Below are positions 4,126 to 4,636 of a stretch of DNA of 15,489 nt, piece by piece. This DNA comes from a virus. Both the position numbers and the translations under genes were made by a program. The stretch lies in the UHGV virus genome UHGV-0097030; one strand, 5' to 3'. Within the stretch, counting starts at the first letter, position 1. Every line of letters begins with the position of its first letter. Below the pieces are notes generated by a model that saw nothing but the letters and a program-made list of their open reading frames with translations, did no database searches and was not told the origin of the DNA.

Positions 4126-4284
4126 TTATGGCGATACCAGAGAGCTTTCTGCGTGTACATGCGTCTCTGTAACTTGCTCTCCTTCACTGTGGTTGCAAGT
4201 GACATGAATATCTCCTTCGTTACCGATTAAATCTTTCATCTGACGAATGAATTCTTCGTCTGACCAGTTATCTGTAAAACTCAT
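4126..4284 (-). CDS. Small acidic protein at the kil position (function unassigned)
   Basis: Track ORF 4126..4314. The ATG at 4284 overlaps the stop of the cIII-like gene (ATGA). An alternative start at 4314 would overlap cIII by 34 nt, as kil overlaps cIII in lambda. No sequence similarity to Kil is asserted. Confidence 0.4.
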   Translation of the reverse strand: MSFTDNWSDEEFIRQMKDLIGNEGDIHVTCNHSEGEQVTETHVHAESSLVSP

Positions 4285-4451
4285 GGACGGCCTTGTTGTT
4301 TCAAAATATCCCAAAGCTTTTCGAGCAAACTTTTCATTCTTGGTTGTTTAAAGTCTGCTCCGGTTAAAATATTTTTTCGTGAATGCTGTACCGATAAAAT
4401 CGGGTTGAAAGGGCGAACCGATGCCGCCCCTGCAATAGCGAACTGTTGCAT
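4281..4451 (-). CDS. cIII: cIII-like protein (putative FtsH inhibitor)
   Basis: Track ORF 4281..4556. The internal ATG at 4451 has AAGGAG 6 nt upstream. The 56-aa product MQQFAIAGAASVRPFNPILSV...KSLLEKLWDILKQQGRP resembles lambda CIII (MQYAIAG...SLLERI...RLIDILNQPG). An intrinsic terminator lies upstream. Confidence 0.55.
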   Translation of the reverse strand: MQQFAIAGAASVRPFNPILSVQHSRKNILTGADFKQPRMKSLLEKLWDILKQQGRP

Positions 4452-4511
4452 AGGATGCTCCTTCTGTTTGATTGCATAACGAAAACGCCTCAAGTGAAGC
4501 GTTATTGGTAT

Positions 4512-4541
4512 GCATATAAAAAAGCCCTCACACTGGAGGGC
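4512..4541 (-). terminator. Intrinsic terminator upstream of the cIII-like gene
   Basis: Minus-strand hairpin GCCCTC-cagtgt-GAGGGC followed by TTTTTTATAT. Confidence 0.55.
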
Positions 4542-4636
4542 AAAGAAGATTTCCAATAATCAGAACAAGTCGGCTCCTGTTTAGTTACGAGCGACATTGC
4601 TCCGTGTATTCACTCGTTGGAATGAATACACAGTGC

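Follow-up and report, generated by a model that had tools for sequence, protein, structure and literature searches.

What are the hairpins and small overlapping genes that lie between N and the recombination genes in the virus genome UHGV-0097030? We analyzed a stretch of 15,489 nucleotides (nt) from this genome, hereafter the window, in which all of the features studied lie on the minus strand, and concentrated on the segment 4640–4035, inside a mosaic lambdoid early-left (pL) operon. An earlier note on this DNA had described a gene resembling lambda cIII whose stop codon overlaps a small open reading frame (ORF), with a palindrome in the leader and a terminator upstream. From comparisons of sequence we identify the parts of this locus, with little doubt, as a small RNA (sRNA) gene of the PreS type, the cIII leader, a cIII-like gene, a gp33-type gene and a further gene, ORF3. 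Taken as a whole, the segment is likely to be a standard piece of a lambdoid pL operon, in which PreS and its terminator tL2a are followed by the cIII leader, a CIII-like gene and genes of a recombination module.

The locus is already known and ordinary: sequenced phages contain each of the parts, mostly with an annotation, HK542, HK140 and mEpX1 carry annotated copies that are identical, and PreS has been published. The segment is 95–98% identical to HK542, vB_EcoP-720R6 and others, and HK97, HK022, HK75, mEpX1 and HK140 share partial identity with it. The earlier note did not mention the 3′ end of PreS, the origin of the palindrome in the lambda cIII leader, or ORF3 (4205–4035), which overlaps the small ORF. 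The features, with the basis for each in brackets, are:

4602–4633, minus strand: hairpin H1, with a 14-bp stem and the loop CAAC, directly 5′ of the PreS 5′ end (fold, lambda identity)
4518–4603, minus strand: predicted homologue of the gene for the Hfq-dependent sRNA PreS (LPR1), GGAGCAAUGUCGCUCGUAACUAAACAGGAGCCGACUUGUUCUGAUUAUUGGAAAUCUUCUUUGCCCUCCAGUGUGAGGGCUUUUUU (lambda identity, published primers)
4518–4541, minus strand: predicted intrinsic terminator, homologue of lambda tL2a, with stem GCCCUCCAGUGUGAGGGC at 4541–4524 and U6 at 4523–4518 (terminator scan, lambda identity)
4477–4503, minus strand: hairpin H3, AACGCUUCACUUGAGGCGUU, with a UUUCGUU tail, a conserved cIII-leader hairpin that is weakly terminator-like (scan, fold, conservation)
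4458–4463, minus strand: Shine-Dalgarno sequence AAGGAG, 6 nt before the cIII-like ATG (read from the sequence)
4281–4451, minus strand: cIII-like gene, 56 amino acids (aa), ATG 4451–4449, TGA 4283–4281 (PHROG 550, hhalign, ratio of nonsynonymous to synonymous substitution rates, dN/dS)
4126–4284, minus strand: small acidic ORF, 52 aa, homologue of HK75 gp33 and HK022 gp42.1 (PHROG 2123, identity, synteny)
4035–4205, minus strand: ORF3, 56 aa (MSLATTVKESKLQRRM...), homologue of HK022 gp42, just upstream of erf (PHROG 1723, dN/dS)
3419–4024, minus strand: erf, encoding a P22-type single-strand annealing protein, at the start of the recombination module (context)

PreS and the cIII leader

Where the earlier note had an intrinsic terminator at 4512–4541, a terminator scan found a six-pair GC-rich stem followed directly by U6, and its match to lambda identifies this hairpin as the putative 3′ end of a PreS/LPR1 sRNA gene. 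Window positions 4636–4524 equal lambda 34045–33933, in the ral–ea10 intergenic region, at 113/113 nt, and this identical block spans H1, the whole sRNA body, the CUG region that pairs with dnaN and the terminator stem. The lambda region encodes LPR1/PreS, an Hfq-bound sRNA of ~88 nt that is processed to ~68 nt, whose hairpin and poly-U 3′ end are the early-left termination site tL2a and which activates translation of host dnaN and supports phage replication; conservation of LPR1 was surveyed with a criterion of at least 92% nucleotide identity to the lambda sequence (bioRxiv 10.1101/2024.10.31.621285), and here the identity is complete through the terminator stem. The published LPR1 cloning and T7 primers (P810, P1103 and P1104), which set the 5′ end at GGAGCAAUG... 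/ (G)GAGCAAUGUCG and the 3′ end at ...GAGGGCGAUUUUUUA, agree with the homologue ends 4603–4518. The CUG that is altered in LPR1-M1 is kept here, in GACUUGUUCUGAUUAUUGG, the wild-type sequence of primers P838/P839.

Folding of the 88-nt RNA gave a terminal hairpin with a free energy (dG) of −28.2 kcal/mol, and H1 (4633–4602, inside the identical block) reached −21.9 kcal/mol, with a z-score of −7.7 and 0/200 shuffles as stable. Taken alone, the consensus terminator scan did not reach significance, with 8 hits in 4 kb where 4.2 ± 2.1 were expected. Both the tL2a hairpin and hairpin H3 in the cIII leader are kept in lambda and many relatives, far beyond chance, and the records of HK97, mEpX1 and HK75 label the tL2a hairpin a terminator. 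With nutL and a lambda-type N gene upstream, and the mapped tL2a as its lambda homologue, the terminator would by analogy stand in an N-antiterminated operon, as had been proposed. Automated scans miss PreS because Rfam 15 holds no model for it: no real match was obtained at gathering thresholds over the whole window or at E ≤ 10 over 3900–4900.

PreS lies in the pL operon in both phages, and in both it ends in a hairpin and U-tract of the Hfq-dependent type. Its neighbors differ. In lambda, ea10 stands between PreS and the cIII leader and ral lies upstream, whereas in the window PreS abuts the leader, with 72 nt from the end of the tL2a stem to the cIII-like ATG, and its upstream neighbor is an unrelated 62-aa ORF. 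PreS also abuts the cIII leader in 48/78 related loci with the 56-aa gene and in 11/79 loci with a lambda-type cIII. Between PreS and the leader, ea10 is thus an optional cassette, which carries a 3′ hairpin of its own, GGCCGCCUGAGUGCGGUUUU (lambda stretch 837–1205 versus window 4523–4512); in P22 a similar hairpin follows gene 17, upstream of c3. On the other side, a hairpin AGGCCGAATAGTCGGCCT with TTTATTTTTGGCATAAACAACAGA stands right before PreS in lambda, HK542, mEpX1 and Shimwellia; in the window (5160–4637) the AGGCCGAATAGTCGGCCT hairpin is parted from PreS by two ORFs, of 97 aa (5118–4825) and 62 aa (4825–4637; PHROG 10407, unknown function), which look like a moron-like insertion between the upstream terminator and PreS. 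PreS itself contains the start of a 31-codon ORF (MSLVTKQEPTCSDYWKSSLPSSVRAFLYAYQ, 4597–4502), whose AUG lies inside the PreS 5′ end, with GGAG before it, and which runs through the terminator; lambda has a near-identical ORF, and no family match to it was found.

Downstream of the terminator, the window aligns with the lambda cIII leader (window 4512–4453 with lambda 33521–33464, CAUACCAAUAACGCUUCACUCGAGGCGUUUUUCGUUAUG...AAGGAGCA..AUG), and H3 can be identified from this alignment as lambda's own cIII-leader hairpin. It is the palindrome of the earlier note, real and conserved, at 4503–4484 instead of about 4474–4493 and thus 10 nt from the position quoted there. H3 is a stem of 8 pairs with a 4-nt loop (dG −9.9 kcal/mol, z −3.5), and it is retained in 74/78 loci with the 56-aa gene and 72/79 lambda-type cIII loci. 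Its 225 copies comprise 19 variants, which differ mostly in the loop; at two pairs of the stem both partners have changed in a compensatory way, from C:G to U:A in 8 loci and from G:C to U:A in Pseudocitrobacter. Pairing was present in 96% of cells, against 32–70% with a slid partner, and 5/500 shuffles attained the observed score. More distantly related loci, such as those from Buttiauxella and Dryocola, keep the order of terminator, second hairpin and Shine-Dalgarno sequence with different sequences; the Pluralibacter relative has no such leader. The HK75 record annotates both the tL2a homologue and H3 as terminators, and in our scan H3 (4503–4477) fits the intrinsic-terminator pattern more weakly than the tL2a homologue does. 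H3 may correspond to the site called tL2b in lambda; the lambda GenBank and RefSeq records carry no terminator features.

Two further structures were considered and rejected. A fold of the leader with the first 50 nt of coding sequence was not unusually stable (z −1.4) and left the Shine-Dalgarno sequence mostly unpaired, which did not favor a lambda-like translational switch at the start codon; the structures of lambda cIII mRNA were not assumed here, because the coding sequence diverges from lambda after about +8. In a 241-nt fold the Shine-Dalgarno sequence paired with the U-rich stretch 5′ of tL2a, which we judged to be weak wobble pairing.

The 56-residue protein and CIII

The cIII-like ORF encodes MQQFAIAGAASVRPFNPILSVQHSRKNILTGADFKQPRMKSLLEKLWDILKQQGRP, beginning with MQQFAIAG and ending with KQQGRP. 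It is a real gene under purifying selection, with a dN/dS of 0.19–0.31 over unsaturated pairs; several distant pairs, in which dS was saturated, were discarded. The related loci from IMG/VR are the best 80, chosen on protein identity, and hence unusable for a selection test.

The protein falls in PHROG 550 (E 1e-22), and profile comparison places it as a divergent relative of CIII, in keeping with the earlier note. By BLASTP the similarity is marginal (E 0.025 to lambda, E 0.002 to HK022), and between profiles it is significant: hhalign gave 96.2% and E 2e-9 for the family against CIII, and 95.6% and E 1e-8 for a broader profile of 31 sequences. Two hundred column shuffles scored 9.0 ± 2.0 (maximum 17.1) against 45.1 for the real profile, with 0/200 attaining it, and the reversed profile gave 0.6%. 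Each part of the protein carries signal, the N-terminal 16 columns alone at E 1e-5 and the remainder alone at E 4e-5. The N-termini are of CIII type: MQQFAFAG opens some true CIII proteins, and the MTFAISGG of some family members resembles Salmonella CIII. Longer members of the family end in ...LFDRLCEFLNQPGDP, close to the ...RLIDILNQPGVP of lambda CIII. Profile searching recovered 39 representative sequences of the family, which come from prophages in Escherichia, Salmonella, Enterobacter, Atlantibacter, Buttiauxella, Pseudocitrobacter, Pluralibacter and Dryocola. A sequence search of PDB with the protein or its family gave no match, and our literature searches found no paper describing this 56-aa class.

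Context points the same way. The gene occupies the position of cIII, behind the cIII leader and with N before it and the recombination genes after it in the pL operon, in a phage with a lambda-type CII (PF05269, E 7e-30) encoded on the other side of the window, where abc2 lies further left. The window encodes CII but neither a further cIII nor a kil, which leaves the 56-aa ORF as sole candidate for the part of CIII; a tblastn search of the whole window with the Kil proteins of lambda, HK97 and P22 gave nothing below E 0.02. Records of related phages label the ORF "putative cIII" or "CIII anti-termination"; the second product name, found in RefSeq and PHROG, is misleading, as CIII is a protease inhibitor and not an antiterminator.

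The protein is best seen as a CIII N-terminal motif followed by a conserved insert of ~24 residues and a shortened helix, with no lambda-type tail. As the earlier note held, the central region thus differs from the FtsH-inhibitory helix of lambda, and the MQ.AIAG start and the SLLEKLWDILKQQG stretch (residues 41–54) are present as it described. Its view that the C-terminal region is kept needs adjusting: SLLE and L.DIL.Q.G.P are there, and they match the ends of lambda region 14–37 plus 38–43, not the lambda C-terminus. The insert carries the motif F-[DN]-x-I-x-S-I-[QE]-[HF]...N-I-L-T-[GS]-x-x-F, which CIII lacks, and of the most conserved family columns (G8, T30, F34, K40 and P56) T30 and F34 fall inside it. 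AlphaFold2, run with the 17-sequence alignment, predicted helices at 17–26, 31–34 and 37–53; the last, which is amphipathic, is the best-predicted part of the model, with a predicted local distance difference test score (pLDDT) of ~82 for the block.

Two classes of CIII have been described, and residues 14–37 of lambda CIII are essential (Kobiler et al. 2007, PMC1838920). The 56-aa protein resembles lambda CIII (PF02061) in the place of its gene in the operon, in the hairpin and Shine-Dalgarno region of the leader and in having a CII gene as partner, as well as in a predicted amphipathic helix towards the C-terminus, the M-Q-x-(F/Y)-A-I-A-G N-terminus, SLLE(K/R) and L-x-D-I-L-x-Q-x-G-x-P. It differs in the insert after the N-terminal motif, in a helix that is ~11 residues shorter under the SLLE alignment, in the absence of the lambda tail PKNGSNTYGYPD (KNGSNTYGYPD) and in having no kil after its gene. 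With the second class, CIII of HK022 and HK97, the leader DNA is nearly identical up to the start codon and the flanking genes are likewise those of an erf module, whereas only the N-terminal 17 residues align (the BLASTP match of E 0.002) and cIII (44 aa) plus kil (50 aa) stand where the window has a single 56-aa ORF.

Two hybrid proteins also occur. HK75 CIII (MQYAIAGWPVAGCPSESLLERITRKLRDGWKRVEVLLCAMK; HK75 stretch 1383–1508) is lambda-type through K31-R32 and then has an HK022-type C-terminus, so recombination takes place inside the cIII gene. An E. coli prophage protein joins residues 1–26 of lambda N (MDAQTRRRERRAEKQAQWKAANPLLVG) to residues 10–56 of the cIII-like protein, implying that a deletion fused the two genes.

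The small acidic ORF and ORF3

The small ORF is acidic (~12 D/E against 2 K/R over 52 aa) and its start overlaps the cIII-like stop, in an ATGA at 4284–4281, both as the earlier note had reported; the overlap is present in 80/80 related loci. It matches PHROG 2123 over its full length (E 1e-41) and is 90% identical (47/52) to HK75 gp33. From this identity and from synteny, we assign it as a homologue of HK75 gp33 and HK022 gp42.1, the putative first gene of the erf recombination module. Like them, it lies immediately upstream of gp42 and erf and overlaps the preceding gene by ATGA. Its last residues differ from those of HK75 gp33 (52 aa here, 56 aa there), and it follows the cIII-like gene, whereas gp33 follows kil. 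By itself, HK75 gp33 is reported to set off the OLD abortive-infection nuclease, and it is a proposed manipulator of RecBCD, function having been tested for the HK75 and HK446 proteins only (bioRxiv 10.64898/2026.07.10.737580).

The small ORF also weakly resembles P22 Arf, a small acidic peptide encoded just upstream of erf that shares its SDEEFI motif. This likeness spans ~20 residues at borderline significance (Arf PHROG 2445, E 0.011, residues 5–26 only; tblastn E 1.6), and the rest is unrelated. Among the 80 loci the small ORF takes forms of 35, 52, 56 and 60 aa, which share only the first ~17 residues, and its dN/dS is 0.45–0.69. ORF3 (PHROG 1723, E 9e-36), which overlaps it in another frame, has a dN/dS of 0.09–0.25, and its protein is conserved in Pseudocitrobacter despite diverged DNA. 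ORF3 is the better conserved of the two, so that the small ORF's tail probably reflects no more than the sequence of ORF3.

The order in HK97, HK022 and HK75 is cIII, kil, small ORF, overlapping ORF and erf. In the window, HK542 and mEpX1, the 56-aa gene precisely takes the place of the cIII plus kil block, beginning at the cIII ATG and reaching to the ATGAG where the small ORF starts. HK97 gp42 (83 aa; HK97 stretch 1962–2213) is a fusion of the two overlapping ORFs by two 1-nt indels (window 4205–4126). The split, two-gene form is present in the window, HK022, HK542 and HK75, and conservation in Pseudocitrobacter indicates that it is the common one. The "recombinase" label on the 52–58-aa ORFs of PHROGs 2123 and 1723 is propagated and has no evident basis.

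Function, expression and rival explanations

By analogy with lambda, polymerase without N modification would stop at tL2a, where the hairpin and U-tract would form the Hfq-binding 3′ end of PreS, and N-modified polymerase would pass tL2a and the weaker H3 and transcribe the cIII-like and recombination genes. The small acidic gene would be translationally coupled to the cIII-like gene through the ATGA. The C-terminal amphipathic helix of the 56-aa peptide would favor lysogeny by competing with CII for FtsH, a membrane protease, and the small acidic protein would act with the Erf recombination and anti-RecBCD module and not in cell division. The early region of the window has a repressor (6640–7341), a pL-like promoter, lambda nutL boxA and boxB (boxB GCCCTGAAGAAGGGC at 6430–6416) and a lambda-type N ORF at about 6147–5815.

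Several observations weigh against this account. The 56-aa protein has no PF02061 match in Pfam at E ≤ 1, nor do the 17 family members at E ≤ 10; neither protein nor family matches NCBIfam; and a search of 1.84 billion representatives with the family hidden Markov model (HMM) returned the 39 proteins of its own kind and did not reach canonical CIII, to which only profile–profile comparison ties the family. The AlphaFold2 model has an overall pLDDT of 61, which is low confidence, and the helix has an amphipathic moment of 0.60, reached by 85/2000 shuffles, compared with 0.83 for lambda and 0.72 for HK022 (0/2000 each). The substitutions S17A, R24A, L26A, R27A and R32A each make lambda CIII cIII- (Kobiler et al. 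2007, PMC1838920), and retention of these residues varies with the register of the alignment: in the hhalign register S17, L26, R27 and R32 correspond to S20, M39, K40 and K45, and R24 to P37, whereas with SLLE aligned to SLLE the serine and R/K32 are kept and R24, L26 and R27 fall in the deleted segment. The tail after the tL2a stem is U6 directly, compared with GA-U6 in lambda, the sole difference in PreS. The start position of N (6147–6145) reads ATT (caggagaatccagATTGATGCACAAACACGCCGC) instead of ATG, a rare allele, the exact 28-mer with ATT occurring in 1 IMG/VR contig compared with at least 120 with ATG. N may therefore be poorly translated or defective in this prophage, and read-through and expression of the segment may be weak or lost here.

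One alternative is that the 56-aa protein descends from CIII and no longer inhibits FtsH, its middle motif giving it another target or activity, so that it replaces cIII and kil. The absence of a Pfam CIII match, the HMM searches that stay within a separate family, the two highly conserved columns in the insert, the shorter and less amphipathic helix and the exact exchange of the cIII plus kil block for one ORF would all fit. Both termini still match CIII significantly, however, the gene has the position and the leader of cIII, the window encodes a lambda-type CII but lacks a second cIII, and the middle segment has no similarity to Kil; we consider such a loss of function possible and rather doubtful, and inhibition of FtsH by the peptide, judged by analogy, somewhat the better bet. 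That the locus holds a cIII/kil-like pair, with the small acidic ORF as a Kil-like division inhibitor, was implied by the earlier note, and it draws on arrangement only, since the stop/start overlap of a small gene with the cIII end resembles that of cIII and kil in lambda, HK97 and P22. The ORF shows no similarity to Kil (PF06301 and the HK97 and P22 types) in Pfam or PHROGs or by tblastn with the lambda, HK97 and P22 proteins; the same ORF lies after kil in HK97, HK022 and HK75; it is a close homologue of gp33 of the HK75 recombination locus; and its conservation is confined to a core of ~17 N-terminal residues, which has an Arf-like motif. This reading is already contradicted by homology and synteny, and we regard it as highly improbable.

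The remaining alternatives concern expression. H3 could be mainly a post-transcriptional element of the cIII mRNA (a 5′ stabilizer, a site for RNase III or other processing, or a translational switch) and not a terminator. It accompanies the start of cIII irrespective of what precedes it (PreS directly, or ea10) and of the class of cIII that comes after, its stem is weak at −9.9 kcal/mol, its U-tract is interrupted (UUUUCGUU), and translation of lambda cIII reportedly depends on mRNA structure and RNase III (work of Altuvia, Kornitzer and Oppenheim). Yet H3 passes the terminator scan and is an annotated terminator in HK75, and the fold of the leader and ORF start is not unusually stable and leaves the Shine-Dalgarno sequence essentially free. 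The two roles are not mutually exclusive, and an mRNA element as the principal role seems to us the less probable. It may also be that the segment is largely silent in this prophage, with N lacking an AUG, polymerase stopping at tL2a or at terminators before it, and very little expression of the cIII-like and recombination genes. The rarity of the ATT allele and the three terminator-like hairpins between pL and the cIII-like gene (5160–5143, 4541–4524 and 4503–4484) would agree with this, but all of the downstream ORFs examined are intact, AUU can serve as a weak start codon in E. coli, and silence would bear on the level of expression and not on the identity of the elements; we hold it to be unlikely, if conceivable.

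Under the preferred reading, a standard lambdoid pL segment, the locus matters mainly as a correction of element identities. A hairpin taken for a plain terminator would be the 3′ end of a functional phage sRNA gene, and the small ORF would belong with questions of recombination, RecBCD and OLD instead of cell division. We suggest, tentatively, that the 56-aa peptides form a third CIII-like class, in which the insert and truncated helix could mean a different engagement of FtsH/HflKC or a different target, and that the arrangement of PreS, tL2a and cIII could let one terminator set the ratio of a pro-lytic sRNA to a pro-lysogenic peptide. As a natural CIII variant that lacks or rearranges residues essential in lambda, the 56-aa family could show the minimal need for FtsH inhibition.

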